The translations under genes and the position numbers were made by a program. Below are positions 10,662 through 31,863 of a stretch of DNA of 64,000 nucleotides, piece after piece. This stretch comes from Syntrophomonadaceae bacterium. GTDB lineage: Bacteria > Bacillota > Dethiobacteria > DTU022. The stretch lies in assembly GCA_007121075.1 (NCBI GenBank), contig SKMK01000033.1:312-64311 (forward strand), read 5' to 3'. Within the stretch, counting starts at the first letter, position 1. The number at the start of each line of letters is the position of its first letter. The notes beneath the pieces were generated by a model that saw only the letters and a program-made list of their open reading frames with translations, was not told the origin of the DNA and did no database searches.

Positions 10662-10830
10662 GTCAAATTCTCCCCTTTATAATTAAACTAATATATTATA
10701 ATTGACCTGCTTACTGATTGGTCTTCTTTTTTAACTCACAGGCTGCGCAGGGATCCATATAGCACAAAGTATGATCGTTGTTTTCCAGGCAGGGCGGTGA
10801 AAGGTTCAGACAAGCACTGCATAATGTGCT

Positions 10831-11391
10831 TTATCCACTGGGACCCTGGCAGCGAACCTGGCAAACCGGACAAATATACATGCATGCCCCACAGAGGCGG
10901 CATTGTTCGGACTTCCTGTCAAAAGCGGTGCTGATTCGCCGATTGACGCCCCTGTCAACAAAACCGATCGCCTTTGCCTGCATTTGCTCCTCACACATTC
11001 TGACACACAGACCGCACAATATGCACTCTTCGTTTTTTGGTGAAAAGCGGACTCCGGTAACACCATATTTTGAAGCCAGATCCTGAATTGTTTTCGAGGA
11101 TGGGCACGTCGCCAGGTAAAGCTCGATGATCATTTTTCTGGTCTGCATTACCCGCACGGTATTGGTCCTTACATTCAGCTTTTCCCTGGCTGGGTAGGTG
11201 CAAGAACTAACCAGGCGAGATTTGCCCGGCTCTCCTATTTCGACCAAGCATAACCGGCATGCCCCGTAGGGGCTTAAAGCTTCATCATAGCAAAGGGTTG
11301 GAATATTAGCCCCGTAAAACCTGGCTACATCGAGCAGGGTAGCACCCGGTTCCACATTAATCTTGAGGCCGTCCATGGTCAGATTAATCAA
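10831..11391 (-). CDS. 2Fe-2S / 4Fe-4S ferredoxin-like electron-transfer subunit (NuoG/HydA N-terminal type, no catalytic domain)
   Basis: 186 aa; N-terminal 2Fe-2S fold (TLCYDEALSPYGACRLC), followed by CGLCVRMC and CRLCGACMYICPVC 4Fe-4S motifs. Confidence 0.75.
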   Translation of the reverse strand: MINLTMDGLKINVEPGATLLDVARFYGANIPTLCYDEALSPYGACRLCLVEIGEPGKSRLVSSCTYPAREKLNVRTNTVRVMQTRKMIIELYLATCPSSKTIQDLASKYGVTGVRFSPKNEECILCGLCVRMCEEQMQAKAIGFVDRGVNRRISTAFDRKSEQCRLCGACMYICPVCQVRCQGPSG

Positions 11392-11413
11392 TTTCTCACC
11401 TCATCTAGCGGTC

Positions 11414-13276
11414 CTACTGCTTTAAGATTGCCTCATTTCGGCATGTAGAAAAGCAAATACCACACTTATCACACTGATCTTTATCAATATAATGGGGTTT
11501 TTTCTGCTCTCCGGTTATAGCATCCGACGGGCAATTCTTTTTACATAAACCGCATCCGTTACAGTAGGATTCAATGATCTCAAAAGTAATCAGCGCCCGG
11601 CAAACACCGGCCGGACATTTATTTTGTAAAATATGAACCCTGTATTCATCTTCAAAATATTTTATGGTCGACAGCACCGGGTTGGGAGCAGTTTGACCAA
11701 GCCCGCACAAGGTTGAATCTTTAACTACTTCTGCCAGTTCTTTTAACAGGTCCAGCTGGTCAAGTGAACCGCGTCCACAGGATATGTTCTGCACCAGCTC
11801 GAGCAGTCGGCTTATTCCTTCCCGACAGGTAAAACAACACCCGCAGGATTCATCAGCCAAAAATTTTAAAAAATACCCGGCCAGATCAACCATACAGGTA
11901 TCTTCATCCATGACGATCATGCCCCCTGAACCCATCATGGAACCCACTTCTGTTAAGCTCTCGAAATCGGTGGGCAGATCCAGGTATGAAGCAGGCAGAC
12001 AACCACCAGAGGGACCTCCGGTCTGGACAGCTTTAAAGGCTTTTCCCTCTTTGATACCGCCCCCAATTTCAAAGATGATCTCTCTCAGGGTCATGCCCAG
12101 AGGCACCTCAACCAGGCCGGTATTGTTGACTTTGCCGACCAGCGAAAATATTTTTGTCCCACTTGATGCCTCGGTTCCAGTTGCGCGGTAGTTTTCCGCT
12201 CCCTGTTTGATAATATGAGGGACATTGGCCAGGGTTTCTACGTTATTGACCACGGTCGGCCTGTCCAGGTAGCCTTGCTGTACCAGGCGGGGAGGCTTTT
12301 GGACCGGTTCCCCAACTCTTCCGTCAACCGAAGCAATAAGGGCGGAAGTTTCACCACATACAAAAGCGCCCGCCCCGATGCTTAGGTAGATTTGAATCCC
12401 GAAACCACTGCCCAGGATATCGTCGCCTACCAAACCCAACTCTTTCGCCCGGTTAATCGCAGTCTTGATCTTCTCCACGGCGGTGGGATACTCAGATCGA
12501 ATATATACTACGCCTTCCCGGGCATCGGTGGCATACGCACCAATAATTAATCCTTCCAGAACAGCATGAGGATTGCCTTCCAGAAGGCTCCGATCCATAA
12601 ATGCGCCCGGATCTCCTTCGTCGGCATTGCAAATTATAAACTTCCTGCCGGATGCCTTGAAGCATTCTTCCCACTTAAGGCCGGCATCAAATCCGGCTCC
12701 ACCCCGGCCTCTTAAACGGGCCTCTTTGACTTCTTGCACAACTTCACCCGGGCTCATTTCCGTGACCGCTTTCACCAGGGCCTCGTAACCGCCCTGGGCT
12801 ATATAATCTTCTATTTTGGTGGGATCTGTTTTCCAATTGCCACTCAGCAAATTCCTGACCTGCTTTTTGTAAAATGGAAGGCCCCGGGCATAGGCATATT
12901 TTTCGCCACTGGACGGATCCCTGTAAATAAGCCTGTCAATAATCCGGCCCGCCTGGACAGTTTCTTCTACAATTTCCGGCATATCATCAGGAATGACCCT
13001 GTGGTATAATATCTCCTCCGGGTAAACAATTACCAGGGGCCCGCTTTCACACAGGCCCAGGCAACCTGTAAACCTGGCTCCTACCGTTTCACTCAAATCT
13101 TTTTCTTTAAGGCACCGATCCAGGCTTCCCAGAATCGCCTTTGAATTTCTGGCGGTACATCCGGTATCGCCGCAAATCGCAATAAAACGATTATTGTCCC
13201 GGTACTGCTTTTGATAATTCCGCTGGATATAAAAAAACTCTTCTGCGCTTTTTATTTTTGGCGCTTCCAAATCCAT
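11414..13276 (-). CDS. NuoF/HoxF/HndC-like NADH-binding FMN flavoprotein with extra ferredoxin domains
   Basis: 620 aa; 51-kDa subunit motifs (GRGGAGFDAGLKWE, ICNADEGDPGAFMDR), C-terminal CxxCxxCxxxCP ferredoxin motifs, N-terminal thioredoxin-like 2Fe-2S segment. Confidence 0.85.
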   Translation of the reverse strand: MDLEAPKIKSAEEFFYIQRNYQKQYRDNNRFIAICGDTGCTARNSKAILGSLDRCLKEKDLSETVGARFTGCLGLCESGPLVIVYPEEILYHRVIPDDMPEIVEETVQAGRIIDRLIYRDPSSGEKYAYARGLPFYKKQVRNLLSGNWKTDPTKIEDYIAQGGYEALVKAVTEMSPGEVVQEVKEARLRGRGGAGFDAGLKWEECFKASGRKFIICNADEGDPGAFMDRSLLEGNPHAVLEGLIIGAYATDAREGVVYIRSEYPTAVEKIKTAINRAKELGLVGDDILGSGFGIQIYLSIGAGAFVCGETSALIASVDGRVGEPVQKPPRLVQQGYLDRPTVVNNVETLANVPHIIKQGAENYRATGTEASSGTKIFSLVGKVNNTGLVEVPLGMTLREIIFEIGGGIKEGKAFKAVQTGGPSGGCLPASYLDLPTDFESLTEVGSMMGSGGMIVMDEDTCMVDLAGYFLKFLADESCGCCFTCREGISRLLELVQNISCGRGSLDQLDLLKELAEVVKDSTLCGLGQTAPNPVLSTIKYFEDEYRVHILQNKCPAGVCRALITFEIIESYCNGCGLCKKNCPSDAITGEQKKPHYIDKDQCDKCGICFSTCRNEAILKQ

Positions 13277-13302
13277 ATTGCCGGACTCCTCTTAATATCA
13301 TA

Positions 13303-13803
13303 TTACTTACTTAAACCGGAAGACACTGTTTGTTCAGTCTTGGTCGGGTTATCGCTAAAAAGTCTACGCACTTTCAAGGGGGTCATCTGACCGTAATATC
13401 GACCATCAACAATTATCAGGGGCGCCAGGGCGCAGGCGCCAACACAATTAACGCATTTAAGGGAATACTCACCGTCTTCAGTCGTGGAACTTATATCAAC
13501 CCCAAGGGTTCGGGAAATTTCTTCAGTAATTTTTTCACTTCCCCGCACGTGGCAGGCCGTTCCGGCGCAGGTGACAACCTCGCGACGGCCCTGCGGGGCC
13601 AATCTAAAGTTCTTGTAAAAAGTAGCAACACTATAAAAATCTATTAGAGGAACTTTCAGCTCCCGGGCAGCCTTTTCCAAGGCTTCTTCGGGAAGGTAGC
13701 CATAATAACCCTGGATAGCTTGAAGCACTGTAATAACCGAAACCCCATTAGGGCCACAGGGAACCTCGAGCCCGAGCACAGTATTTTTTTTCATGGCAGT
13801 CAC
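13303..13803 (-). CDS. NuoE-like (24-kDa) 2Fe-2S thioredoxin-like ferredoxin subunit
   Basis: 166 aa; CAGTACHVRGS...CVNCVGACALAP 2Fe-2S motif typical of NuoE/HndA. Confidence 0.8.
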   Translation of the reverse strand: MTAMKKNTVLGLEVPCGPNGVSVITVLQAIQGYYGYLPEEALEKAARELKVPLIDFYSVATFYKNFRLAPQGRREVVTCAGTACHVRGSEKITEEISRTLGVDISSTTEDGEYSLKCVNCVGACALAPLIIVDGRYYGQMTPLKVRRLFSDNPTKTEQTVSSGLSK

Positions 13804-21991: not shown

Positions 21992-23473
21992 CTATCCGGA
22001 TTCAGTTTCCCAATGGATCCCGTCTCCTTTTTCTACGGTAACCAGGGCTGGAAATTCCTCCCTGACCCTGGCATCGATTTCCGGGGGAACAATCGGCTCA
22101 GAAGGCTCCTGGAGGATCTGCGCAGCAAGTTCTTCCGCCCGCTTCCAGCTGTCCTTGCTCCCGGCATCGATCCAGCGCTGGTAAGGCTGTCGATCGCTGG
22201 CCCGCGGGGCATAACTTTCAGTGCGCATGTACCTGACCGTATGCTCCTCACTGAGATAATTGCCACCGGGTCCAACCCTGGCAATAATATCATAGGCCAG
22301 CGTATCCTGGTTAATTTCAATCCCTCGTAAAGTGCGCAGGCAGCTTCCAACAATATCGTTGTCGATCACATACTGAGCATAAGAAACTGTAAGGGCCCCG
22401 TCGAGCATGCCAAACGCTTCATGAATAAAGTTCCCCCCGGCCAGGGCAGCCAACATGGCCGTAGTTGCTCCTTCATGGGCGGCCTGGGCGTCGGGAAGCT
22501 TGGAGTCGGTGGTGCCTACTGTCAAATAACAGGGCAGGCGGTAATAATGGGCCATCTGGGTAATGGCTGCATTCATCAAACCCGATTCTATACTGCCCAT
22601 CAAGAAAGACATGGTCCGCATATCCATGGTTACCGGTACAGCACTGTACAGGACGGGCGTACCCGGGTTAACCAACTGAGTAAGCATCACTCCCATCAGC
22701 GCTTCGGCATTTTGCTGAACGAGGGTGCCGGCCAGGGTAATCGGCGCCGTCGCTCCGGCGCAAGGAGCAGTCGAAGTAGCCAGGGGAAGGCCGTAGCGAG
22801 CTACTTCCATGATATATTCCGCATGCTCGGGGCTTATTTTTAACGGGCTGTTTATCGATGAAATAAAACCGACAAAGGGCCTGCGCTGTAAATTTTCCAG
22901 CCCCCCGGCGATAATTGAGGCAATTCTAATTGCATCTTCAAGCCCCTGCTTGCTGAAAATACCGCTCATTACCGGTTTTCCGGTATTCAGAAAAGCCTGG
23001 TACTTGGTATTGATACCCACAGTCTCGATATTGATATCATGCGGATAAAGGGGATTGATAAAAAAGTTCAGGTATTCCAGCCTGTCGGCAAGCCGGGCCA
23101 GTTCTGCAACATCGTGGATGGCCCCGGGTCGCTTGTTTCGTTCAAGATCCAAAACATAAAGGGCCAGTCCTCCGGTGCCAAAGTTAACTTTCTTGCCGCC
23201 GATGGTAATATCTTTTCCTTCCTGGCGGCCGTAAAAGACAAACTCGGCCGGAGCTTGTTTGATACAACGGGATACAAGATCCCTGGTCACATAGATCCGG
23301 TGGCGGTCATAATCAACCCTGGCTCCGTTTTTTTCAAACAACTCGAGGGTTGGCTGGTAATTAATTTCAAATCCTACTTTTTCCAGCACCTTGATCGATG
23401 TTTCATGGATCTGGCTTATCTCCTTTTCCGAAAGGACATTATAGCCCCCGCCTTCATAGGTCAATTTTTCCAT
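21992..23473 (-). CDS. MttB-superfamily (trimethylamine methyltransferase-like) corrinoid-dependent methyltransferase, non-pyrrolysine type, paralog 1
   Basis: 493 aa uninterrupted ORF (no amber); TIM-barrel MttB-family similarity along whole length; downstream of Opu transporter and CBS gene on same strand. Confidence 0.75.
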   Translation of the reverse strand: MEKLTYEGGGYNVLSEKEISQIHETSIKVLEKVGFEINYQPTLELFEKNGARVDYDRHRIYVTRDLVSRCIKQAPAEFVFYGRQEGKDITIGGKKVNFGTGGLALYVLDLERNKRPGAIHDVAELARLADRLEYLNFFINPLYPHDINIETVGINTKYQAFLNTGKPVMSGIFSKQGLEDAIRIASIIAGGLENLQRRPFVGFISSINSPLKISPEHAEYIMEVARYGLPLATSTAPCAGATAPITLAGTLVQQNAEALMGVMLTQLVNPGTPVLYSAVPVTMDMRTMSFLMGSIESGLMNAAITQMAHYYRLPCYLTVGTTDSKLPDAQAAHEGATTAMLAALAGGNFIHEAFGMLDGALTVSYAQYVIDNDIVGSCLRTLRGIEINQDTLAYDIIARVGPGGNYLSEEHTVRYMRTESYAPRASDRQPYQRWIDAGSKDSWKRAEELAAQILQEPSEPIVPPEIDARVREEFPALVTVEKGDGIHWETESG

Positions 23474-23526: not shown

Positions 23527-24024
23527 TTAAGTCTGGTTAATTGTCTCCCATTTTTGTACCATGGCCCTGATTAAATCCGCCCTGGTAATAATCCCTGTTA
23601 GTTTATTGTTTTCGTCGGTTACCGGGATACGATTAATGCCGTTTTCATACATTAAACGGCTTACATCATATACGGGAGCATCTTCTTTAACCGAAATCAC
23701 TTCTGTCGTCATTAAGGTTTCCACGGTTGTGGAAGCAACCAGTTCTATCACTTCCACACCCCGGTGAGTAATATCAACATGGAGGACTTCTTTTCCCTTG
23801 GTAAATACCTGGTGAGGATCGCGCAGGGGCTGGCCGATTATTTGCTGGGTGTAACGAAGGATATCGGTCTCAGATACAACCCCGATTAAGTTATCCTCAT
23901 CATCAGTAACTGGCATTCCGCTAAAACTATTCTCATCCAAAATCTCAGCCGCTCTCTTCAGTGAAGTGTCCGTTTTGACGCTGATCACCGGAGAAGTCAT
24001 AATTTCTTTTGCCAATATCGCCAT
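23527..24024 (-). CDS. CBS-domain (tandem CBS pairs) protein
   Basis: Start at MAILAKEIMTSPV with GGAGGG RBS; four CBS-like repeats. Confidence 0.7.
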   Translation of the reverse strand: MAILAKEIMTSPVISVKTDTSLKRAAEILDENSFSGMPVTDDEDNLIGVVSETDILRYTQQIIGQPLRDPHQVFTKGKEVLHVDITHRGVEVIELVASTTVETLMTTEVISVKEDAPVYDVSRLMYENGINRIPVTDENNKLTGIITRADLIRAMVQKWETINQT

Positions 24025-24114
24025 ACTAATCCCTCCATAAATGCTTGTCAATAGATATTTCAAGCCACCAAAACCTAGCAACCACAAACATTCTTTAAGC
24101 ATTAATACAACAAA

Positions 24115-24144
24115 GGGGCAAGCAAGATTATCCCTGCTTGCCCC
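24115..24144 (-). terminator. Rho-independent terminator-like hairpin after opuAC-type gene
   Basis: Perfect 10-bp GC-rich stem GGGGCAAGCA/TGCTTGCCCC with 10-nt loop, followed on minus strand by TTTGTTGTATT. Confidence 0.5.
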
Positions 24145-24211
24145 CGCATTAACTGGCTGTTTTTCCCTTATTATATTAACTGCTTCATCATTTTACAGTC
24201 TTTTTTTCTGC

Positions 24212-25135
24212 TTACTCAATAAATCCTTCTTCACGCAACCACTCTTCTGCAACTTCTCTCGGAAGTTCTTCTTCCAGGTCAACTTTCATGTTCAGTGAAG
24301 ACATAACTTCCGGGGTCAACACGGCAGCGATGGGATTAAGAATGTCCGGGATTTCAGGAAATTCATCCAGGATATCCTGGCGAACTACCGGAGAACAGTT
24401 GTAAACCGGATGGAATTCCTGGTCGTCTACCAGGTTGACCAGGTTAAACTCAGCAATACGGGCATCTGTAGCAAAGCCCATTGCAGTGGCATGCATCCCA
24501 TCATTCAATGCGCCGTAGGTAATCCCGAGGTCCATAACTTCGTAACTTTCAAATTCAAAACCGTAATGCACCTGCAGCTGCTCCAGGCCGTCATCGCGAG
24601 CTTCGTATTCGTGGTCGGTAGCAAAAGACCATTCGCCCGGTTCGGGAGCTTCTACGCCTTCGTTAATGGCTTCAGCCAGGTCGCTGATTGTTTCGATGCC
24701 CATTTCTTCAGCATCTTCCTGGCGCATCATCACGGTGTAGGTGTTGTTAAACGGTGTCTTCTCCAGCCAGACCAGGTCATTTTCTGTCTGGTCCCATTCT
24801 GCTATGGTGGCATATGCTTCTTCCGGGTCGGTAATTACATCGTGCCCCATGAACTCAACCAGGGCAGTACCGGTGTATTCCCAGTACATCCCGATGTCCC
24901 CTCTTTCCAGGGCTTCACGGGCCACAACAGTACCGCCGAGGTTGGTTTCATCTTCCACCGGGATACCGGCATCTTCCAGGGCAACCAGGGCAATCTGGCC
25001 CAGGATCAACTGCTCGGTAAACTCTTTCGATCCTACTGTCACCGTAGGCTCATCAGGTTCACAGCCCATTACAAACAACGAACCTACCAGGAAAATCAAG
25101 ACTAAAGATAGTGTTAACAATCTTTTAATACTCAT
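24212..25135 (-). CDS. Quaternary-amine (glycine betaine/choline/carnitine type) ABC transporter substrate-binding lipoprotein (OpuAC family)
   Basis: 307 aa; signal peptide + lipobox (LFVMGCEP); OpuAC-type binding fold; in operon with OpuA/OpuC-type permeases and ATPase. Confidence 0.75.
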   Translation of the reverse strand: MSIKRLLTLSLVLIFLVGSLFVMGCEPDEPTVTVGSKEFTEQLILGQIALVALEDAGIPVEDETNLGGTVVAREALERGDIGMYWEYTGTALVEFMGHDVITDPEEAYATIAEWDQTENDLVWLEKTPFNNTYTVMMRQEDAEEMGIETISDLAEAINEGVEAPEPGEWSFATDHEYEARDDGLEQLQVHYGFEFESYEVMDLGITYGALNDGMHATAMGFATDARIAEFNLVNLVDDQEFHPVYNCSPVVRQDILDEFPEIPDILNPIAAVLTPEVMSSLNMKVDLEEELPREVAEEWLREEGFIE

Positions 25136-25280
25136 AAATATAATCTACCCCCTTCTACTCATTTGGTTTGGGAAAACAGCCAAACTCTAACTCTATTTCA
25201 CTTTAACTCTTAACCTTTATTATAACATCCAATCACAAATTTTTGCTAATATATATCAAAGTCTCTCCAAGCTTATATGA

Positions 25281-26003
25281 TTAAGACCAGCGGACAACCC
25301 GTTCTTCGGCTTTGCCAATCAAATAATCCAATAAAATGGCCGTAATAGCAGCAATAACCGCTCCATTCACGATAATCATATCCCGGTGAACTGAAAGCCC
25401 GGTTACGATCAGGTCCCCGAGGCCGCCGCCACCAATAAAGGTAGCCAGGGTGGCAGCACCGACATTAATCACGATAGCAGTCCTGAGGCCGGCCACAATA
25501 ATCGGAAAAGCGATCGGCAGTTCAATCCTGGTTAAAATGCGTAAGGGACGCATACCCATTCCCCTGGCCGCTTCAATAATACTGTGTTCAACACCGTCTA
25601 TACCGGCAAAAGTGTTCCTCAGAATGGGCAAAATCGAGTAGAGAAACAGGGCAAATACCGCCACCCTGAATCCCAGGCCTAATATGGTATAGAAAAGAGC
25701 CAGCACGGCCAGGCTGGGCACAGTCTGGCCGATGTTGACTATGGTTTCCATTACCCGGCCGATCCGGTACAGGCTGGGGCGGGACAGCATAATCCCCCCG
25801 GCCACACCGACGATCGTGGCCCCGGTCATCGAAACCAGGAGCAGGCCCATATGCTCCCTGATCACTCTAAAGACTCGCTCATAGGTGAGCATCCGGGCCA
25901 CGATGGAATCAGGAGGGTTATTGACAGAATAGATAACAATTGCTGCTGCAATTCCGATCATGATCAGCGGAATTCCGATCCAAACCCACAAAGTCCGTAG
26001 CAT
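25281..26003 (-). CDS. Quaternary-amine ABC transporter permease (OpuCD/OpuBD-like)
   Basis: 240 aa, 6 TM, ABC permease EAA-like motif (EAARGMGMRPLRILTRIELP). Confidence 0.8.
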   Translation of the reverse strand: MLRTLWVWIGIPLIMIGIAAAIVIYSVNNPPDSIVARMLTYERVFRVIREHMGLLLVSMTGATIVGVAGGIMLSRPSLYRIGRVMETIVNIGQTVPSLAVLALFYTILGLGFRVAVFALFLYSILPILRNTFAGIDGVEHSIIEAARGMGMRPLRILTRIELPIAFPIIVAGLRTAIVINVGAATLATFIGGGGLGDLIVTGLSVHRDMIIVNGAVIAAITAILLDYLIGKAEERVVRWS

Positions 26004-26005
26004 GA

Positions 26006-27124
26006 TTAGCTATCCTCCCTGACCACGTTGAGCAGGTCGCCCAGGGTGATTGTTCCTTGATACTTCTCATCTTCGTTAACTACGGCCACATAACCTTCAC
26101 CAATCTCAAGCATAACCGAAAGGGCATCGTTCAAAGTGGCATCGTCGGTTACCGTATCGGATACTTCCTGGAAGTAATCGCCTGCCACTTCACCTGTTTT
26201 TCGTTTTAGATCATTTACCCCGATAACTCCTTTCAGCTTGTTATCGCGATCGACAACTATAACCGTCCTGATATCACTTTCATCAAGCCGTTTTTTAACC
26301 TCTTCTTCCTTTGTGTCTTCCTTGAGTGCCGGTGCCCTGTCGACTTCTTCCAAAATTTCGCTGACCCGGATCAGGTGCAACCGCTTAATGGAGCGGTTCC
26401 TTCCTACCAGGTTTGATACAAATTCATCGGCCGGCGCGCTGAGCAAATCGCTCGGAGTGGCGTGCTGGACCAGTTCACCTTCTCTCATCACAGCGATGGT
26501 ATCGCTCATTTTAATCGCTTCATCAATATCGTGGGTAACGAAAACGATGGTTTTATCCACCCTTTCCTGGATCCTTAAAAACTCGTTCTGCAAGCGAGCC
26601 CTGGTGATCGGGTCAACCGCGCCGAAGGGCTCGTCCATGAGCATGATCGGCGGATCGGAAACCATCGCCCGGGCCACGCCGACCCTTTGCCTCTGGCCGC
26701 CGCTCAGGGCCGAAGGATAGCGATTTTTAAAAATTTCCGGGTCGAGTCCTACCAGGCTCATCACGTTATCTACTTTTTCTTTTACCTGGTCTTTGGGCCA
26801 CTGTTTTTCATTGGGGACGGTAGCGATATTTTCATAAATTGTCATGTGGGGAAACAACCCGATTTCCTGGATCACATAGCCAATATCCAGGCGCAGTTTT
26901 ATCGGGTCCATTTGAAGGGCGTCTTCACCCCGGATATATATCTTCCCCCCGGTTGGTTCATAAAGGCGGTTAATCATTTTCATGGTTGTAGTTTTTCCGC
27001 ACCCTGAAGGGCCAACCAGGACACAAACATCCCCCTCATTTACTTCCAGGTTCAGGTCCTTGACCGCGGGAATATTATGCCCCTTGAAAACTTTAGTCAA
27101 TCCTTCCAATTTTATCATGTTCAA
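26006..27124 (-). CDS. Glycine betaine/proline-type ABC transporter ATP-binding protein with C-terminal CBS domains (OpuAA/OpuCA-like)
   Basis: 372 aa; Walker A GPSGCGKTT, signature LSGGQRQRVGVARA, Walker B IMLMDEPFGAVD, tandem CBS at C-terminus. Confidence 0.85.
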   Translation of the reverse strand: MNMIKLEGLTKVFKGHNIPAVKDLNLEVNEGDVCVLVGPSGCGKTTTMKMINRLYEPTGGKIYIRGEDALQMDPIKLRLDIGYVIQEIGLFPHMTIYENIATVPNEKQWPKDQVKEKVDNVMSLVGLDPEIFKNRYPSALSGGQRQRVGVARAMVSDPPIMLMDEPFGAVDPITRARLQNEFLRIQERVDKTIVFVTHDIDEAIKMSDTIAVMREGELVQHATPSDLLSAPADEFVSNLVGRNRSIKRLHLIRVSEILEEVDRAPALKEDTKEEEVKKRLDESDIRTVIVVDRDNKLKGVIGVNDLKRKTGEVAGDYFQEVSDTVTDDATLNDALSVMLEIGEGYVAVVNEDEKYQGTITLGDLLNVVREDS

Positions 27125-27858
27125 TTCCCCTCCCTTGTGCTGCCTTCTACGGAAAACCGCTTCTCTCCATAATAGAGGAGGTAATCGAAGGCAATTGCGA
27201 TTATGGATACCCCGATTGCACCGGCAATAATCATCGGCTGGTGTCCCCTGGAAATACCGGAAAAGATCAGCTCACCCAGTCCGCCTGCTCCTACATAAGC
27301 GGCAATAGCGGCAATACCGATCATCATAACCGCTGCAGTCCGAACCCCGGCCATGATTACAGGCCTGGCCAGAGGGATTTTAATTTTGAAGAGAATACGC
27401 CGCTCCGTCATTCCCATTCCCTTGGCCGCTTCAACAATCGCCGGATCTAGCTCCCTGATCCCGGTATATGTATTTCTAACAACCGGCAGTAAGCTGTAAA
27501 GAACCAGGGCTACCACCCCGGTAGTAAAACCGATCCCAAACAATGGAACCATAAAGGCAAGCATGGCCATACTGGGAATAACCATCAAAACCTGGCATAT
27601 CCCCAGAACAGTTTGAGCAAGGCTTTCATAGTAGCTGATAATTATACCGATCGTTACAGATATGGTTACTGCAATTATCAAGGTCAATATAACCAGCCAG
27701 AGGTGTTCAAGCATCAATTCCAAAATCAAGTCACTTCGACGAGAAATGTAGTCAATCGTGTGGGCAATAATACCCCGGTCTCCTGCCTGGGCTATCGACT
27801 CAATGCCATTTCCCGCCGCCCTGAATGCATCAAACGCCATCCCTAATAATTGGTCCAT
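27121..27858 (-). CDS. Quaternary-amine ABC transporter permease (OpuCB/OpuBB-like)
   Basis: 245 aa; EAAKGMGMTERRILFKIKIP motif; overlaps ATPase start by 4 nt. Confidence 0.8.
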   Translation of the reverse strand: MDQLLGMAFDAFRAAGNGIESIAQAGDRGIIAHTIDYISRRSDLILELMLEHLWLVILTLIIAVTISVTIGIIISYYESLAQTVLGICQVLMVIPSMAMLAFMVPLFGIGFTTGVVALVLYSLLPVVRNTYTGIRELDPAIVEAAKGMGMTERRILFKIKIPLARPVIMAGVRTAAVMMIGIAAIAAYVGAGGLGELIFSGISRGHQPMIIAGAIGVSIIAIAFDYLLYYGEKRFSVEGSTREGN

Positions 27859-28234: not shown

Positions 28235-29482
28235 TTATTTAACAATCTGGATTATACCAACCAGTCCATGGCCCAGGCCGTGACCCTGCTGAAGGTTCAT
28301 TTCCAGGCTGCGAATGGCATATCCGAGCTGGGCTTCGATCAAGTCGGCCCTGATATCACCGTAAAGCCCTTTGCTACCTTCCAGGCTCTGCCGCATAACC
28401 CGGTACGCTTTCTCCAGGGGTTTTACATCGGTTTGCGGGGGATAGGGCAGCAGTTCCTCGTCACTGTCATAATTCTCCATCAGGACCATGGTATAATCGA
28501 CCAGGTCATTCCAGCTGTCGGCCAGCCTCTGGAGGGATTCATTCTGCCAGTCAAACCCTTCCCTGGGTTTGTAGTTTACTTTGAGATCCGGAAAATAGGT
28601 CCTCAAACCGCGCTCAAAGAGGGATGAAACCATCAGGCGCAGAGGTTGAGAATTGCCGTTATAGGTGCCGGTCTCGATGTGCCTGCCCACAAACAGGGAG
28701 CGGTCAAAAAATCGCAATACTTTCAGTTCCACTCCAGCCTTTCGGGCCGCACTTTCCAGGATCCTAAAAACCTCAGCCGGTGTCATAAGCCGCAGTGGAA
28801 ATGAAGACAGATCTACATTATCCCTGTCTTCCTCCTCATAGAGGTAATTAATTACGTAGTCGATATAGGAAATTTCTTCCGGATCATGAGTCCACAGGTT
28901 TTGCCACTCATATGAATAGCGGCCCAGAAAGTCAGCCAGGATCAGGCTTCCGTTGTTACCGTGCTTACCCATATCTACAAACAACTTTTCCAGCTCTTCA
29001 TTAGTGCAGTGAGAAAGAGTCCCGTAGGAAGTGAAATAAAGATCGTACGGCTCTTCGCCTTCGTCCAGGGGCAGGCCGTTTGAAAAATCTCCCTTACAGA
29101 AATTAACATGGTCATAATCGCCAAACAGGGTTTCAGCTTCTTTAAGCAATTCAATGCTTAAATCAATGCCCTTATACTGGTCCATCATGTCGTCTTTGAT
29201 TAAGCGGGTATCAAACTGGGACAACCTGGCTCCCCTGGCCATGTTGCTGAGCAGTTCATATCCGTCGCCTGTTCCACAGCCCAGGTCATAAAAACGCAAC
29301 CCTTCGCCAATTTTATTGACTTTCATTTTTACAATATCTTCTATATAGGGCCTGAGATAGTATTTAGTAATAAAATCTTCAAACTGGGTCCGGACATGGT
29401 CGTACTTGCCGCGCAAACTCCTTACGTGTTCGCTGTACCTCCCATGTCGTATCGCTTCTTGATAAGCCTTATCGGCATCCAT
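28235..29482 (-). CDS. Class I SAM-dependent methyltransferase with large C-terminal extension, translationally linked to corrinoid protein
   Basis: Start placed at Met24 (AGGAGGG RBS; 1 nt after corrinoid-protein stop); motif I FYDLGCGTGDG, post-I D (GIDLS), motif II YDLYFTSYGTL; ~230 aa C-terminal region without recognisable motifs. Confidence 0.7.
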   Translation of the reverse strand: MDADKAYQEAIRHGRYSEHVRSLRGKYDHVRTQFEDFITKYYLRPYIEDIVKMKVNKIGEGLRFYDLGCGTGDGYELLSNMARGARLSQFDTRLIKDDMMDQYKGIDLSIELLKEAETLFGDYDHVNFCKGDFSNGLPLDEGEEPYDLYFTSYGTLSHCTNEELEKLFVDMGKHGNNGSLILADFLGRYSYEWQNLWTHDPEEISYIDYVINYLYEEEDRDNVDLSSFPLRLMTPAEVFRILESAARKAGVELKVLRFFDRSLFVGRHIETGTYNGNSQPLRLMVSSLFERGLRTYFPDLKVNYKPREGFDWQNESLQRLADSWNDLVDYTMVLMENYDSDEELLPYPPQTDVKPLEKAYRVMRQSLEGSKGLYGDIRADLIEAQLGYAIRSLEMNLQQGHGLGHGLVGIIQIVK

Positions 29483-29483
29483 G

Positions 29484-30185
29484 CTAACTTTTCCCTCCTG
29501 ATTGTAATAATTTTTCTGCCACCCGGATGGCGGCAAAAGCATCTTTTCCATACCCGTCGGCGCCTATCTCGGCCGCAAAATCATCGGAAGTCGGTGCTCC
29601 ACCAATTATAACCTTAACTTTATCGCGAAGTCCTTTCTTCTCAAGTTCCTTGACAACATTTTCCATGTTAACCATGGTGGTGTTGAGCAGGGCCGAAAGC
29701 CCAACCAGATCCGCTTTTTCTTGCTCGGCCGCTTCTACGATCCGGGCGGCAGGTACATCAATGCCCAAATCTACTACATTAAAACCTGCTCCTTTAAGCA
29801 TAATTGACACCAGGTTTTTACCGATATCATGCAGGTCTTTTTCTACTGTCGCCATGATTACTTTTCCTTTGCCTTCACTTTCACCTGCACTGGCCAGGTG
29901 CGGTTCCATGACTTTCATGCCTGCTTCAACAGCTTCTGCAGCGGTTAGCATATCCGGGATAAAGTATTCCCCTGTTTCATATTTTTCCCCGACCTGCTCC
30001 ATGCCTTTGCTCAGACCTTCAAGCAGAATCGTATTTGTATCGATCCCGTTATCCAGTGCTTCCTGGACCAGTTCCGCCACTCCCGCCTTGCCGGCATAAT
30101 CTTCTTCAATACCTTCGTCATCCTTATTGCGGCGCCCCTGCAGGACATTTTCCACTATGCGTTTAATCAGTTCTTCCTTCAACAT
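29484..30185 (-). CDS. Cobalamin-binding corrinoid protein (MtgC/MttC-type)
   Basis: 233 aa; B12-binding_2 helical cap then Rossmann B12 domain with DxHxxG (DLHDIGKNLV), SxL and GG motifs; strong RBS TAAGGAGGAAGA. Confidence 0.85.
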   Translation of the reverse strand: MLKEELIKRIVENVLQGRRNKDDEGIEEDYAGKAGVAELVQEALDNGIDTNTILLEGLSKGMEQVGEKYETGEYFIPDMLTAAEAVEAGMKVMEPHLASAGESEGKGKVIMATVEKDLHDIGKNLVSIMLKGAGFNVVDLGIDVPAARIVEAAEQEKADLVGLSALLNTTMVNMENVVKELEKKGLRDKVKVIIGGAPTSDDFAAEIGADGYGKDAFAAIRVAEKLLQSGGKS

Positions 30186-30279
30186 TCTTCCTCCTTAACT
30201 TCGCAGTCATTTATTATTAAATCAATATAGCCTACCATGCGTGTTCACACGATCCGTTAAAATACTTTTTGTAAAAAAT

Positions 30280-30313
30280 CTTTGTTATACAACCCTGTGG
30301 TTGTATAACAAAG
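30280..30313 (-). promoter_or_regulatory. Perfect 15-bp inverted repeat (CTTTGTTATACAACC-ctgt-GGTTGTATAACAAAG) between mttB paralog 2 and corrinoid gene
   Basis: Read directly from sequence; followed on minus strand by GATTTTTTAC; could be internal attenuator/processing hairpin or operator. Confidence 0.45.
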
Positions 30314-30327
30314 GATACCTGCCACTT

Positions 30328-31863
30328 TTATTTTGCATACGGATTTAAACGGGGCAGCAATCCGGGTATCTGCTCAAAAATACGCTTGCAAATATCTTCT
30401 GAGAGGTGTTCCGGTTGCTGTTTTTCTAGTTCTTTTAACTTGTCATGGGCTGCCAGCAAAGTCTGATCTTCTTCTTCCAAATCACCTTCAAAGGGGAAAC
30501 CGGGAAAGATTTCGCCGCGGCGCAGCATCTTACGGGCAAAACGGGCATAGAGCCTGTAAGGACTGTTCATTACTTCTTCGATCATACTCTTTATCCGTCC
30601 GGCCTCTCCTGCTTCCACACCACTTTCCCGGTAAAGTGACTTAACCATAGCAATCTGATGGTTTTCAAGAACAGCCTGCTCCGGAGAAAAAGTTTGTGTT
30701 TTATCCAACAAACCAAAGGCATAATGAATTAAATCAGGTGCTGAAGAGGGAACTGCTGTGTAAGTAAACATTTTTTCCACGGCCGCCTGAACACCCGGCA
30801 CCTTTGCATCGCCAACACCGGCGGTTGAATAACAAGGCACTTTGTAATACCGGGCCATCTGGGCACAGATCATGTTATAATGACAAAATTCAGGCACACC
30901 ATACATGTCGTGCAGATCATCCATGCGCGCTCGTACCGGCACTGCACCATAAATAACCGGTGCTCCCGGATTGGTCAGCTGGTTGATTACTATTCCTGCT
31001 AAAGTTTCCGCATTTACCTGTGCCGCCATACCAAATTCTTCTATTGGGGCCGTTGATCCACCCTGAGGTGAAGTGGAAATAATAACTGGTAAACCTAACT
31101 TAGAAATGGCCATCAGTTTGTCTGCAGTTTCGTCCACTATTTGTAAAGGACTCTTGATCACACTGGTAATAAATGTCACTATCGGATTTTTGATCAGTTG
31201 TTCGCGCCCGCCTGTTATTATTTCAGCCATGGCAACTACGTTTTCAAGTTGTTCGGGATCGGCTACCCCGCTAACTATCGGCTTGGTAGTATAGTTTAAG
31301 GCGGCAAAAAAAACATTGACATCCTTATTTTCGCCACTGATATCGGAATCCTGTACATTAACGTTGCGAAGGAAAAAATCTAAGTTCTCAAGTTGTTCTG
31401 CAAGATGCGCTGAGCGACAAAGATATTCCAGGCTGCCCCGGTTTTTTTTCATTACCGGAAAGACCTGTTCTCGTCCATCCTGCTTGGAAACAAAAGTCTC
31501 CGGCTCAACTTCCAACCAGTAGTTGGTTTCCGAACCGGTGCCAAAATAAACTCTTGAACCCTCAGCATCCATAACAACCTGATTTTCCGGTTTTCTTGCT
31601 CCAAGAGTTACCTTTGTCGGAGCACTATCCAGCGCCTTCTGAACCACTTTTTCCGGAATACTTACCCACCAGGCATCGTGCTCTCCCTCACGTGTTTTCT
31701 TGGCAGTGGCACCTGCTTTTTCCAACAATGCAACTGCTTCTTCGTTGTAACAGAGAATACCCGGCGTTTCTAAAAGATCTAAAGATGTTTGGTGAACCAG
31801 TTCAACCTGTTCTTGACTTAAACGTTCATACGGCTTAGATACTACTACTCCTCTTTCACTCAA
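30328..31863 (-). CDS. MttB-superfamily corrinoid-dependent methyltransferase, non-pyrrolysine type, paralog 2
   Basis: 511 aa uninterrupted ORF; MttB family similarity (compare paralog 1: ...YFGTG...SPL.I... conserved blocks); first gene of operon with corrinoid protein. Confidence 0.75.
   Translation of the reverse strand: MSERGVVVSKPYERLSQEQVELVHQTSLDLLETPGILCYNEEAVALLEKAGATAKKTREGEHDAWWVSIPEKVVQKALDSAPTKVTLGARKPENQVVMDAEGSRVYFGTGSETNYWLEVEPETFVSKQDGREQVFPVMKKNRGSLEYLCRSAHLAEQLENLDFFLRNVNVQDSDISGENKDVNVFFAALNYTTKPIVSGVADPEQLENVVAMAEIITGGREQLIKNPIVTFITSVIKSPLQIVDETADKLMAISKLGLPVIISTSPQGGSTAPIEEFGMAAQVNAETLAGIVINQLTNPGAPVIYGAVPVRARMDDLHDMYGVPEFCHYNMICAQMARYYKVPCYSTAGVGDAKVPGVQAAVEKMFTYTAVPSSAPDLIHYAFGLLDKTQTFSPEQAVLENHQIAMVKSLYRESGVEAGEAGRIKSMIEEVMNSPYRLYARFARKMLRRGEIFPGFPFEGDLEEEDQTLLAAHDKLKELEKQQPEHLSEDICKRIFEQIPGLLPRLNPYAK

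Follow-up and report, generated by a model that had tools for sequence, protein, structure and literature searches.

One of the closest described systems is the MtgB-MtgC-MtgA (plus RamA) glycine betaine:tetrahydrofolate (THF) system of Desulfitobacterium hafniense and Acetobacterium woodii. The locus described here resembles it in pairing an MttB-superfamily TIM-barrel enzyme with an MtgC-like corrinoid protein carrying a DxHxxG motif, in having a betaine-type transporter nearby and, in most orthologous clusters, in possessing an MtgA-like pterin methyltransferase. It differs in having two dedicated MttB paralogues, neither with Y97, R312, H348 and F356 of MtgB, in lacking RamA, in place of which other lineages have a protein with a MetH activation domain, and in having a conserved SAM methyltransferase (MT) and an AsnB-like enzyme as extra members. 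An accessory enzyme acting on a small-molecule substrate has a precedent in the MthB-MthC-MthA-MthK choline system of Eubacterium limosum, in which a kinase encoded in the MttB cluster makes phosphocholine (PMC12155760). The accessory enzyme here is a methyltransferase instead of a kinase and, since methylation as a catabolic "activation" would bring zero net gain, the logic of the MT cluster is probably biosynthetic rather than one of substrate conditioning. MetH and the split MtgBCD/MetH of Ruegeria (PMC12478193) share with these clusters a pterin-binding barrel, a cap plus B12-binding domain and a SAM-dependent activation domain, here on separate genes. Unlike the zinc homocysteine barrel of MetH, the acceptor/donor barrel here is of the MttB type, in two paralogues, and the window (the whole 64,000-nt stretch of DNA analyzed) encodes the B12 protein and the MttB barrels only.

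The ORF listing and Pfam searches confirmed three linked minus-strand genes, which encode an amber-free MttB homologue (MttB1), a DxHxxG corrinoid protein and the 415-aa MT (Table 1), as the initial annotation had described. The corrinoid TAG stop (29486-29484) is followed by one base and then the MT ATG, and AGGAGGG lies 9-10 nt upstream of this ATG, in agreement with the coupled start behind a strong ribosome-binding site noted previously. The MT ORF opens at 29551; the ATG at 29482, taken earlier as the start, is the real one, because a database protein of 415 aa is identical to this form and every homologue begins at the same Met. The gap of 142 nt between the MttB1 and corrinoid genes contains a hairpin, which may act as an attenuator, terminate transcription partially or stabilize the mRNA. 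The gene unit exceeds 28235-31863: downstream of MT it goes on with the genes of an Opu ABC transporter (24212-27858), then a CBS protein and a second MttB paralogue (MttB2), giving the order MttB1-corrinoid-MT-OpuABC-CBS-MttB2, and this extended arrangement is kept in the closest relatives.

Table 1. Features of the locus and their positions in the window
Feature	Position	Strand	Details
MttB1	30328..31863	-	511 aa, TTG start, no in-frame stops; PF06253 E=1.5e-62
Hairpin, 15 bp, then ATTTTTT	30280..30313	-	Terminator-like scan only
MtgC/MttC-type corrinoid protein	29484..30185	-	233 aa; PF02607 + PF02310
MT, class I SAM-dependent methyltransferase	28235..29482	-	415 aa; uncharacterized family
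Opu-type ABC transporter, permease 1	27121..27858	-	PF00528
Opu-type ABC transporter ATPase + C-terminal CBS pair	26006..27124	-	PF00005 + 2x PF00571
Opu-type ABC transporter, permease 2	25281..26003	-	PF00528
OpuAC-family substrate-binding lipoprotein	24212..25135	-	PF04069 E=2e-54
Stand-alone CBS-pair protein	23527..24102	-	2x PF00571
MttB2, second amber-free MttB paralogue	21992..23473	-	493 aa; PF06253 E=3e-114

MT consists of an N-terminal helix, a Rossmann core (~60-260) and a ~135-aa C-terminal helical domain ending in a beta-strand. Searches of Pfam, NCBIfam and the PDB gave a generic methyltransferase fold and no assignment beyond it, placing MT in no described family, as had been suspected. 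A total of 938 homologues were found, nearly all of 405-446 aa, which form only 394 clusters at 50% identity; the MT family is new, uncharacterized and sharply bounded, and one fusion of a Usp domain with MT was found. The glycine sarcosine and sarcosine dimethylglycine N-methyltransferases (GSMT/SDMT), which accompany MetK-SahH in halophiles, do not include MT at the sequence level. MT differs from them in its length, its unique C-terminal domain and its N-terminal KYDNVR motif, and in being genetically coupled to corrinoid/MttB genes and AsnB-like enzymes; we know of no such coupling for GSMT or SDMT. The literature searched contained no description of an MttB-corrinoid-MT system, which accords with the novelty initially proposed.

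The gene neighborhood survey covered the 68 non-redundant genome loci in which 2.6 kb or more of sequence precedes the MT homologue. An MttB1 orthologue was found upstream of MT in 67 of the 68 loci and the corrinoid gene also in 63, with four loci containing MttB1 and MT without a corrinoid gene between them. The MttB1-corrinoid-MT linkage is far beyond chance, and it strongly supports the recurrent synteny whose absence had been named beforehand as refuting. In 55 of 78 loci, no more than 30 nt separate the corrinoid stop from the MT start, and the synteny reaches at least six phyla (Bacillota, Desulfobacterota, Chloroflexota, Actinomycetota, Nitrospirota and Planctomycetota). Among the 34 fully flanked loci, 32 contain MttB2, 20 have an Opu importer within or near the cluster, 19 have an MtgA-like Pterin_bind gene in one operon with MT, and 15 have a PF02965 MetH-activation-domain protein alongside MT, which in the orthologous clusters retains the MetH SAM-site motifs (PGY, SxSG). 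The pterin and PF02965 genes are missing locally in the soda-lake lineage of the window, ~20 sister loci being alike, and two MttBs with one corrinoid protein form the core there. Neither phmmer, run with reference proteins on every ORF of the six frames, nor Pfam scans covering 39 ORFs found a pterin-binding, PF02965, RACo/RamA, AsnS, MetK, SahH, ProA or GCS2 homologue in the window; MtgA-, RamA- and MetH-activation-like genes are absent from it, as the initial annotation had stated for the first two. The window is a reduced soda-lake form of the module.

From this absence it had been proposed that MT takes the position of MtgA or RamA and could methylate or remethylate the corrinoid protein, as Co(I)/Co(II), with SAM, instead of a reactivation of the RamA or MetH type. 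The translational coupling of the corrinoid and MT genes is in keeping with this proposal, as is the local lack of RamA, PF02965 and pterin genes in the window and its sister loci. An in-frame continuation of the corrinoid C-terminus into MT in one database protein (P0290) also points that way, but it is one fragment, which an indel artefact could have produced. Since many orthologous loci in other lineages carry MT together with the pterin methyltransferase and the SAM-motif PF02965 protein, MT is not a replacement for these enzymes. MT also occurs without nearby corrinoid genes, not only in the four loci mentioned above but also in the contexts described below, which argues against SAM-dependent Co(II) remethylation. 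We consider this function very improbable. Of the three roles initially offered for MT, action on the amine substrate is favored and Co(II) remethylation disfavored.

In two Natranaerobius species MT stands alone, and the top MttB1 homologues include no protein from this genus. In-frame AsnB-MT fusions were found in P0269 (934 aa) and P0275 (901 aa), whose AsnB part scores above the AsnB equivalog cut-off (565-567 bits vs 499). They adjoin Opu-type ABC genes, one of them also a CBS protein, and no MttB or corrinoid gene lies within 10 kb of them. Among 23 metagenome loci, 14 have an Opu-type ABC transporter close downstream of MT, mostly directly after it. One locus (L104) is a single overlapping operon of ProA-GCS2-MttB-FeS protein-MT-MetK-SahH-OpuABC-MscS, and a Desulfoferrobacter cluster is flanked by MscS, by two AsnB genes with MetK-SahH, and by TrkAH. 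MetK and SahH are adjacent to the cluster in several loci. Across contexts, the most constant partners of MT are an OpuA-type ABC transporter and an AsnB-like enzyme, or else a ProA+GCS2 pair. Together with the Usp fusion, the L104 operon and the Desulfoferrobacter flanks point to a role in osmoadaptation, and so do the soda-lake, marine and hydrothermal habitats of the carriers; the related 'Ca. Syntrophonatronum' has a salt-out lifestyle and no recognized betaine synthesis route (PMC6295475).

In the transporter of the window, permease 1 follows downstream of MT in relatives and in many distant loci as well, and the ATPase has an OpuA-like architecture. The solved structures nearest to the substrate-binding lipoprotein are an OpuBC-derived sensor scaffold, OsmF, OpuCC, ProX and EgtUC, and the lipoprotein is predicted to bind betaine- or choline-type ligands. 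Comparative genomics suggests, with a probability of roughly three in four, that MT represents a new family of SAM methyltransferases acting on small-molecule amines, that it serves the metabolism of a compatible solute of the betaine type transported by Opu, and that it is neither a corrinoid re-activator nor an MtgA stand-in. Anaerobes combine the module in one operon with a pair of dedicated MttB paralogues and an MtgC-like corrinoid protein, mostly joined by an MtgA-like methyl-THF:corrinoid methyltransferase and a MetH-activation-domain protein. The corrinoid protein of the window has a four-helix cap (B12-binding_2) and a Rossmann B12-binding domain, with D-L-H-D-I-G, SALL and GGAP motifs; its best NCBIfam matches, MtgC_2 (209 bits, cut-off 370) and TIGR02370 (207 bits, cut-off 215), are both below cut-off.

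The two MttB paralogues share just 34% identity. MttB1 is a divergent member of the superfamily with its own C-terminal region, matching PF06253 over profile positions 29-420 only and MtgB (9yce/2qne) at 127 bits; its orthologues, found in Desulfobacterota, Chloroflexota, Actinomycetota and elsewhere, are 50-53% identical to it. MttB2 matches MtgB at 302 bits and the pyrrolysine (Pyl)-containing trimethylamine methyltransferase MttB at 225 bits. It is nearer MtgB overall, yet lacks the substrate-binding residues of MtgB, Y97/R312/H348/F356 being replaced by G/Y/E/A. Both paralogues have the FGTG, P(S/C)Y and GML(D/E) active-site motifs in common with Pyl-MttB, and Rfam PYLIS_3 matches all MttB2 orthologues tested (the window and six loci). 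Unlike Pyl-MttB, neither has an in-frame UAG, and the pyrrolysine position is occupied by Val in MttB1 and by Thr321 in MttB2. The R312 site is Tyr in both paralogues (Tyr345 in MttB1) and in at least 95% of their orthologues, as also in the Pyl-containing enzyme. R312 is kept in all characterized acidic quaternary-amine MttB members (PMC13080624), and its replacement by Tyr fits substrates other than classical acidic quaternary amines.

Our tentative reading of the whole locus is that MT would be an N-methyltransferase making a betaine-type compatible solute and that the MttB pair would move the lower-energy methyl groups of that solute; slightly more tentatively, all genes may work one way, toward its net synthesis or completion. 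The Co(I) corrinoid protein would be methylated by methyl-THF through a pterin methyltransferase, whose gene belongs to the cluster in most lineages and would lie elsewhere in the genome of the window's host. MttB1 and MttB2 would then hand methyl-Co(III) groups to a non-quaternary precursor nitrogen (primary to secondary to tertiary amine), MT would spend SAM on the energetically demanding last step(s), quaternization, and Opu would recapture or import the solute. As the acceptor, glycine is one candidate, which would give glycine betaine, and an amino acid derived from asparagine or proline is another. The flow from methyl-THF to an acceptor, anabolic as in MetH, could apply here, and methyl-Co(III)-to-nitrogen transfer is established chemistry of MtgA-type enzymes, which methylate N5 of THF. 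A common direction is argued for by the sharing of operons between MttB genes, SAM-cycle genes (MetK, SahH) and AsnB-like or ProA/GCS2 genes, the last two of which may supply the precursor, and by a reactivation partner that is a MetH-type activation domain with SAM-site motifs rather than RamA. In published free energies, the betaine methyl lies far above methanol and the trimethylamine methyls far below it (PMC7374477 Table 2), which suggests that methyl-THF could drive the lower methylations and not quaternization.

Several observations count against this synthetic reading. Every MttB-superfamily member studied biochemically demethylates its substrate and loads Co(I), and a methylating role is without precedent. 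The MT family is present in organisms without MttB genes, so that the MttB pair is not needed for synthesis there, and the window and its sister loci have no nearby pterin methyltransferase or activation protein, so that the first step would rely on genes beyond those loci. Variants with an MttB gene and no corrinoid gene (L054, L059, L069, L071 and L101-L104) and one locus with MttB1, the corrinoid gene and AsnS without MT (L088) also count against it, and the interchange of AsnB-like with ProA+GCS2 genes is not explained by one precursor.

A canonical RamA-linked MttB/corrinoid/pterin set lies directly beside the cluster in several Desulfobacteraceae and lends the region a catabolic flavor. 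MttB1 and MttB2 may thus be ordinary demethylases passing the methyls of an imported or self-made amine via corrinoid and THF to Wood-Ljungdahl oxidation, with MT as the opposing enzyme that re-methylates the tertiary amine and the locus as a homeostasis unit for synthesis, uptake and breakdown, regulated after transcription. Marine Desulfobacterium strains demethylate betaine to dimethylglycine. All characterized MttB-family enzymes run as demethylases (PMC13080624, PMC12155760), and strain DCMF takes betaine stepwise to sarcosine, presumably via MttB-family enzymes (PMC9768040). The Opu importers agree with such turnover, as do MTHFR/MetV genes adjoining the cluster in four loci (L005, L088, L109 and L111). 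We nevertheless consider turnover somewhat unlikely: if a SAM-consuming synthase is co-transcribed and translationally coupled with demethylases of one compound, methyl groups would cycle from SAM via the solute to methyl-THF at the expense of ATP; genes such as MetK, SahH, AsnB and ProA, found in such operons, have no catabolic role; and the Arg present in every known quaternary-amine demethylase is missing from both paralogues. The cluster is also found in MAGs labelled SeepSRB2 and EthSRB1, syntrophic partner bacteria for which we know of no use of organic substrates.

The adjacency of MetK and SahH would also fit a corrinoid module that feeds methionine/SAM regeneration for MT instead of methylating the amine. 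The methyl source would be either methyl-THF, through the pterin enzyme, or an imported betaine, through one MttB, and the second MttB would be the acceptor side of a split MetH, its barrel replacing the homocysteine barrel. Three MetH modules out of four have counterparts in the cluster, namely the pterin-binding, the cap plus B12-binding and the activation domain. In Ruegeria, betaine demethylation has been shown to be tied to methionine synthesis (PMC12478193), and the core of two MttBs and a corrinoid protein without a pterin gene in the window's lineage agrees with this arrangement, as do the family-specific conserved Cys333, Cys344 and His380 of MttB1. It is improbable, given that no homocysteine-binding (PF02574) protein and no demonstrable zinc site were found, that Cys333 is probably far from the active site by barrel topology, that L104-type operons combine MetK and SahH with a single MttB in the absence of corrinoid and pterin genes, and that no thiol-binding MttB member is known.

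The CBS protein lies between the substrate-binding protein gene and MttB2 in 16 related loci, and a similar CBS protein adjoins an AsnB-MT fusion in L091. Its true start is probably at an internal MAILAKE.

We confirmed by open reading frame (ORF) listing, Pfam and the sequence itself the three minus-strand genes described in the initial annotation, which encode an amber-free MttB-superfamily methyltransferase (MttB1), a corrinoid protein with a DxHxxG motif and a 415-aa class I SAM methyltransferase (MT). The proposed start of MT, 1 nt after the corrinoid stop codon and behind a ribosome-binding site, also held, because the databases contain an identical 415-aa protein and the same first methionine is found in all homologues. 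The TAG stop of the corrinoid gene (29486-29484) is followed by a single base and then the MT ATG, and AGGAGGG is located 9-10 nt 5' of the ATG. The unit extends beyond the 28235-31863 interval originally delimited: after a 376-nt gap, MT is followed by four genes of an Opu-type (betaine-type osmoprotectant) ABC transporter, a gene for a CBS-pair protein and a gene for a second amber-free MttB paralogue (MttB2), all of which belong to it. The transporter is of the OpuA type, with a tandem-CBS ATPase, BPD-type permeases and an OpuAC-family binding protein, and the closest solved relatives of the latter bind choline, betaine, carnitine, proline betaine or ergothioneine.

Features of the MttB/corrinoid/MT/Opu unit in the window
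Feature	Position	Strand	Description
MttB1	30328-31863	-	511 aa, TTG start, uninterrupted; PF06253 E=1.5e-62, profile positions 29-420 only
Hairpin, MttB1/corrinoid gap	30280-30313	-	Terminator-like, 15 pairs
Corrinoid protein	29484-30185	-	233 aa; PF02607 (B12-binding_2 cap) and PF02310 (B12-binding)
MT	28235-29482	-	415 aa; ORF from 29551, gene from ATG 29482
Opu permease	27121-27858	-	
Opu ATPase with CBS pair	26006-27124	-	
Opu permease, second	25281-26003	-	
OpuAC binding protein	24212-25135	-	
Hairpin, OpuAC/CBS-gene gap	24114-24145	-	Terminator-like, 14 pairs
CBS-pair protein	23527-24102	-	
MttB2	21992-23473	-	493 aa, amber-free; PF06253 E=3.3e-114

Two strong hairpins thus lie within the array, and the hairpin scan detected no terminator-like site 3' of the MT gene, a pattern that suggests segmented or attenuated transcription. 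An Rfam search of the window and seven diverse loci identified no riboswitch near the cluster; the only matches were to PYLIS_3 inside MttB2. Among the loci analyzed, the best genome matches, at no more than 94% identity, were "Syntrophomonadaceae" MAGs from hypersaline soda-lake sediments, in which the gene order is that of the window (MttB1 - corrinoid - MT - Opu - CBS - MttB2). Eight soda-lake relatives (L012, L014, L016, L018, L019 and L021-L023) carry about 8-9 kb upstream of MT a conserved gene that looks like a member of the BKACE (beta-keto acid cleavage enzyme; DUF849) family, which is absent from the window itself. The BKACE family includes enzymes proposed for carnitine-to-betaine conversion.

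Pfam was scanned with 39 window ORFs, and reference sequences were searched against every six-frame ORF of the window. The reference-sequence search detected no Pterin_bind (MtgA-like), PF02965 (MetH activation domain), RACo/RamA, AsnS, MetK, SahH, ProA, GCS2 or MTHFR gene in the 64 kb. The six-frame search and Pfam thereby bore out the earlier observation that a pterin methyltransferase and RamA are absent from the window, which, without PF00809 and RACo/RamA, does not contain a three-component system with its activase. The locus resembles a three-component corrinoid system of methylotrophs to which a module for betaine synthesis and uptake has been added, but the MT2 and activase components of such a system are not in the window.

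We examined the relationship of MT to known methyltransferases. MT has the features that define class I SAM methyltransferases, with a GxGxG motif I following beta-1, an acidic residue following beta-2 and a seven-stranded fold. HMM and PDB-sequence searches returned generic fold matches and no described family, in keeping with the uncharacterized status first assigned to it: Pfam matches were limited to the generic Methyltransf_25/31/11/12 families (residues about 60-175), no match was found in NCBIfam, and no PDB sequence matched below E=0.3. An AlphaFold model built from 31 homologues was confident (pLDDT 86, pTM 0.87) and predicted a Rossmann fold instead of a MetH activation domain (PF02965). 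Across the 31 sequences, 56 positions are invariant, and identity to the window protein is only 42-88%. There are 938 homologues in 90% clusters, and a profile search of 1.84 billion representatives yielded only 394 clusters at 50% identity, with 153 below E=1e-30. MT is a class I enzyme outside any described family, and its own family is highly constrained in sequence and sharply bounded.

The gene neighborhood of MT was surveyed in other genomes. A one-genome-per-species scan identified 485 contigs with MT relatives, and the best 80 of the 485, together with look-up loci, were analyzed by comparing reference proteins with six-frame stop-to-stop ORFs at phmmer thresholds; this survey may overlook genes that are small or divergent, such as the corrinoid genes of "corrinoid-less" variants. 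The recurrent linkage that the initial annotation had proposed to look for was found: an MttB1 orthologue lies upstream of MT in 67 of the 68 non-redundant loci with at least 2.6 kb of upstream sequence, accompanied by a corrinoid gene in 63 of 68, and the corrinoid stop and MT start are no more than 30 nt apart in 55 of 78 loci. These counts exclude chance adjacency. The 34 loci flanked on each side by at least 6 kb contained MttB1 (33), MttB2 (32), corrinoid (32), OpuAC (20), Pterin_bind (19), PF02965-like (15), AsnS (14) and ProA/GCS2 (7) genes. The most frequent order, [PF02965-like protein] - MttB2 - Pterin_bind - MttB1 - corrinoid - MT - AsnB-like, was found in Desulfobacterota (including Desulfoferrobacter suflitae and Desulfatitalea alkaliphila), Nitrospirota and unclassified bacteria; Desulfatitalea is without the AsnB-like gene, and MetK and SahH follow the cluster in some loci. 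ProA and a GCS2-family ligase replace the AsnB-like gene in Actinomycetota, some soda-lake Bacillota and some Thermodesulfobacteriota, and Anaerolineales and Phycisphaerae contain MttB2-MttB1-MT-AsnS, with the corrinoid gene absent. An Aminicenantaceae MAG (L088, JBMCVE010000001.1) contains a related array with no MT, Pterin-MttB1-corrinoid-MetV-MetF-corrinoid-MttB-AsnS-HIT-ABC-permease/OpuAC.

RACo-like genes were detected in only seven loci, mostly beside a second MttB set. In Desulfobacteraceae (L055, L060, L065, L067 and L079), a second, canonical methyltransferase set lies 2-9 kb 3' of MT, consisting of Pterin_bind - corrinoid - two more MttB homologues - RACo/RamA-like activase. RACo domains were confirmed on the L072 member of this gene cluster, and the L079 contig stops after the corrinoid gene. 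With this canonical set beside the cluster, the Desulfobacteraceae region is a hub of methylated-amine metabolism. In RamA's place, most cluster versions from outside soda lakes are headed by a gene for the PF02965-like protein, a stand-alone protein of ~230 aa (L003 4254-4949; L086 6819-7520; 29 distinct sequences). It retains the SAM-site motifs of MetH (FSPGYCDWP ... PRKSISGVFG) and has an extra conserved C-terminal NPCxxCxxxC, possibly a metal or Fe-S site.

MT had been thought to occupy the position of the missing pterin methyltransferase and activase. This did not hold, as many other lineages carry MT, Pterin_bind and the PF02965-like protein together; since the cluster elsewhere has its own MtgA-like and reactivation genes, MT is an additional conserved member and replaces neither. 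The PF02965 protein that coexists with MT, and the corrinoid-free contexts in which MT occurs, contradict the accompanying suggestion that MT uses SAM to remethylate Co(II) of the corrinoid protein; we regard this suggestion as highly improbable. The set of MetH-like modules and the pterin-less core of the window would also fit closure of the SAM cycle or transmethylation, an improbable role given that the homocysteine-binding element is absent.

We next compared the two MttB paralogues, which are only 34% identical, with characterized members of the family. To our knowledge, thousands of non-pyrrolysine MttB homologues have no assigned function, and the few substrates established are all acidic quaternary amines. 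Both paralogues belong to the MttB superfamily (PF06253), with the C-terminal part of MttB1 falling outside the profile, and both align in sequence with the solved structures of MtgB and MttB. In MtgB, the methyltransferase of the glycine betaine:THF system MtgB-MtgC-MtgA, the substrate is bound by Y97 and F356 (cation-pi) and by R312 and H348 (carboxylate) (PMC13080624). R312, which salt-bridges the acidic group, is conserved in every member of known function (MtgB, MtcB, MtpB, MtyB and MthB), whose substrates are all acidic quaternary amines (PMC13080624). HMMER alignments to 9yce/2qne showed that these residues are replaced in both paralogues: Y97 by G in MttB2 and S in MttB1, R312 by Tyr316 and Tyr345, H348 by E and Y, and F356 by A and T, respectively. 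The tyrosine that replaces R312 reaches at least 95% conservation in 62 MttB2 and 74 MttB1 orthologues. Neither paralogue thus has the arginine of the characterized acidic quaternary-amine demethylases, and the substitutions place both subfamilies outside that group.

The pyrrolysine (Pyl)-containing trimethylamine (TMA) enzyme (7xcl) likewise has a tyrosine at the R312 position (PSY), and it has the FGTG and GML(D/E) motifs in common with both paralogues. The Pyl position of 7xcl, however, is Thr321 in MttB2 and Val in MttB1, and the reading frames are continuous, with no UAG. With TIGR02369 scores of 438 and 240 bits, below the cut-off of 525, neither paralogue is a Pyl-type MttB proper. PYLIS_3 (RF02510) scored above the gathering threshold in MttB2 of the window (22414-22518, minus strand) and of L003, L005, L029, L047, L055 and L064. 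None of these seven orthologues, all of which were checked, contains an in-frame UAG, and the match probably reflects relatedness of the coding sequence to true mttB, not a recoding signal. Cys333, Cys344 and His380 of MttB1 are 95-100% conserved in its 74 orthologues, and the two cysteines are not conserved in MttB2. These residues could form a metal site or redox pair near the substrate pocket; a zinc site is doubtful, as the topology suggests that Cys333 is remote.

The corrinoid protein has the cap and Rossmann domains and the DxHxxG...SxL...GG motifs (DLHDIG, SALL and GGAP) of the methylotrophic class (MtgC/MttC/MtaC type). Its scores against the specific MtgC models (209 versus a cut-off of 370, and 193 versus 310) fall below the cut-offs, and the protein therefore belongs to the class without being assigned to MtgC.

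We investigated the contexts in which MT occurs apart from corrinoid genes. In Natranaerobius thermophilus and N. trueperi, an MT orthologue (50% identity) stands alone next to a DUF436 gene, and no Natranaerobius protein was among the top MttB1 homologues. The profile search recovered natural AsnB-MT fusions, P0269 (934 aa) and P0275 (901 aa), and a universal stress protein-MT fusion (P0303). The AsnB part of the former scored 565-567 bits against the AsnB equivalog cut-off of 499, and the N terminus of P0269 is MCGI. P0269 is first in an overlapping operon, followed by an ABC ATPase, a permease-OpuAC fusion and an MFS gene, and P0275 adjoins a divergent ABC/permease-OpuAC pair and a CBS protein; MttB and corrinoid genes are absent within 10 kb of either. 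Scanning metagenomes with an alignment of the two fusion proteins' MT domains identified 23 loci, 14 of which have an Opu-type ABC transporter close downstream of MT, mostly directly after it. One metagenome locus (L104; 655-14346, Ga0180432_10002898) forms a single overlapping operon, ProA-GCS2-MttB-DUF362/2x[4Fe-4S]-MT-MetK-SahH-ABC ATPase-permease-OpuAC-MscS, from which corrinoid and pterin genes are absent. Another (L101) has an SDR instead of this Fe-S protein and a MerR regulator upstream. The D. suflitae cluster is flanked on one side by an MscS-type channel and on the other by two AsnB genes, MetK, SahH and TrkH/TrkA. These contexts bear the mark of a system that makes and transports a compatible solute rather than of one that maintains corrinoids. 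In a 350-aa database fragment (P0290), the C-terminal part of a corrinoid protein runs in frame into the MT domain, either a rare genuine fusion or an indel artifact; the two genes are normally 0-30 nt apart.

In the product of the AsnB-like gene that directly follows MT in most Desulfobacterota, Ser or Ala takes the place of the catalytic Cys2 (MSGF... versus MCGI...), as at L003 (13003-14526) and about 35 other loci. With Cys2 replaced, the protein should be unable to hydrolyze glutamine by the normal route, and it may be ammonia- or amine-dependent. Some loci contain beside it a canonical second AsnB (MCGI), the type found in the MT fusions. We rejected the idea that the substrate specificity of MT tracks the partner type, because AsnB-like and ProA/GCS2 partners are interspersed in MT clades; the partner switches even within closely related clades and therefore does not define MT specificity. 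Neither partner was found nearby in the window's lineage, D. alkaliphila or Natranaerobius. The partner can thus be dispensed with, and the simplest explanation is a role in precursor supply or a side branch.

All functional statements here are based on gene context, motifs and predicted fold. The MT family tracks Opu transporters, asparagine synthase, MetK/SahH and MscS, a pattern that points to a putative, unrecognized compatible-solute pathway. From the conservation of the gene set, the occurrence of MT apart from corrinoid genes, its links to Opu, MetK/SahH, MscS, Usp and CBS and the active-site substitutions of the MttB pair, we infer, with a probability of about 75%, that MT methylates the nitrogen of a small molecule and takes part in the metabolism of a betaine-type solute transported by Opu. 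Glycine betaine is the economical guess for this solute, and the fusions and ProA suggest an asparagine- or proline-derived betaine.

The role of the MttB pair is less clear-cut. In a tentative model, to which we give somewhat less than even odds, the pair and MT all work towards synthesis of the solute. Methyl-THF would donate a methyl group to the corrinoid protein, MttB1 and MttB2 would transfer corrinoid methyl groups to the non-quaternary nitrogen of a precursor, and MT would use SAM for the quaternization step. This model draws on the cotranscription, often with translational coupling, of the MttB genes with SAM-cycle and AsnB-like or ProA/GCS2 genes, the latter read as precursor supply, on reactivation in the style of MetH rather than RamA, and on MttB active sites that resemble the enzyme for a non-quaternary amine. 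It also draws on the presence of the cluster in MAGs labeled SeepSRB2 and EthSRB1, syntrophic partners for which we know of no use of organic substrates. The energetics fit as well: methyl energies, taken from different sources, are -241 kJ per mol CH4 for betaine, -107 for methanol and an averaged -31 for trimethylamine (PMC7374477). Non-quaternary N-methyl groups are thus low in energy and would plausibly be within reach of methyl-THF, and a quaternary methyl group would not. Transfer from methyl-Co(III) to nitrogen is, moreover, already the chemistry of MtgA-type enzymes, with N5 of THF as the nitrogen, and a pair of corrinoid-dependent enzymes together with a single SAM enzyme would account for three methylations.

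Conversely, the MttB pair could demethylate the solute that MT re-makes, as every characterized MttB relative demethylates; the importer, the adjacent MTHFR genes and the canonical RamA-linked sets nearby are also consistent with such turnover. We consider it somewhat less likely, since cotranscription would then imply a futile cycle and MetK, SahH, AsnB and ProA would be left without a role. "SAM priming" of a tertiary amine for MttB, by analogy with MthK, the kinase of the choline MthB system, was rejected because methylation followed by demethylation gives no yield and costs ATP.

Within the synthetic model, the MttB pair may run "backwards" and, with the corrinoid protein and a methyl-THF:corrinoid methyltransferase, place cheap Wood-Ljungdahl methyl groups onto an amino-acid-type precursor, MT being kept for the costly quaternization. 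Such a corrinoid-dependent, SAM-sparing route to a betaine-type compound is a speculative proposal that we rate as unlikely; in anaerobes that inhabit saline sediments, its product would possibly be a new solute with asparagine or proline as the starting compound. If the pair does methylate, this would be the first anabolic amine-methylating role in the MttB superfamily and would explain how anaerobes with the acetyl-CoA pathway escape the large ATP demand of making betaine with SAM.

The full-text literature searched yielded no description of an MttB/corrinoid/class I MT/AsnB cluster and nothing on a bacterial asparagine betaine. The locus defines two MttB subfamilies without the hallmark arginine. 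In at least six phyla, both are firmly linked to a corrinoid protein and to an unstudied family of SAM methyltransferases. Carriers include soda-lake syntroph-related Bacillota, Chloroflexota, others, and marine sulfate reducers, among them MAGs labeled as partners of alkane-oxidizing archaea. The gap of "missing betaine synthesis" noted for haloalkaliphilic syntrophs could be closed by the pathway, which could also reveal a new osmolyte. The cultured carriers D. alkaliphila and D. suflitae have the full cluster, so the question is directly testable.

Two further regions of the window were recorded. At 9078-13803 (minus strand), a glutamate-synthase-domain protein (527 aa) adjoins NuoG-like (2Fe-2S/4Fe-4S type), NuoF-like (620 aa) and NuoE-like genes, a predicted electron-bifurcating-type module that, as far as can be told, is unconnected with the MttB/MT locus. 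A gene of the F420-0:gamma-glutamyl ligase family is located at 3381-4544 (minus strand), which is unusual, the closest-matching genomes being Bacillota MAGs.
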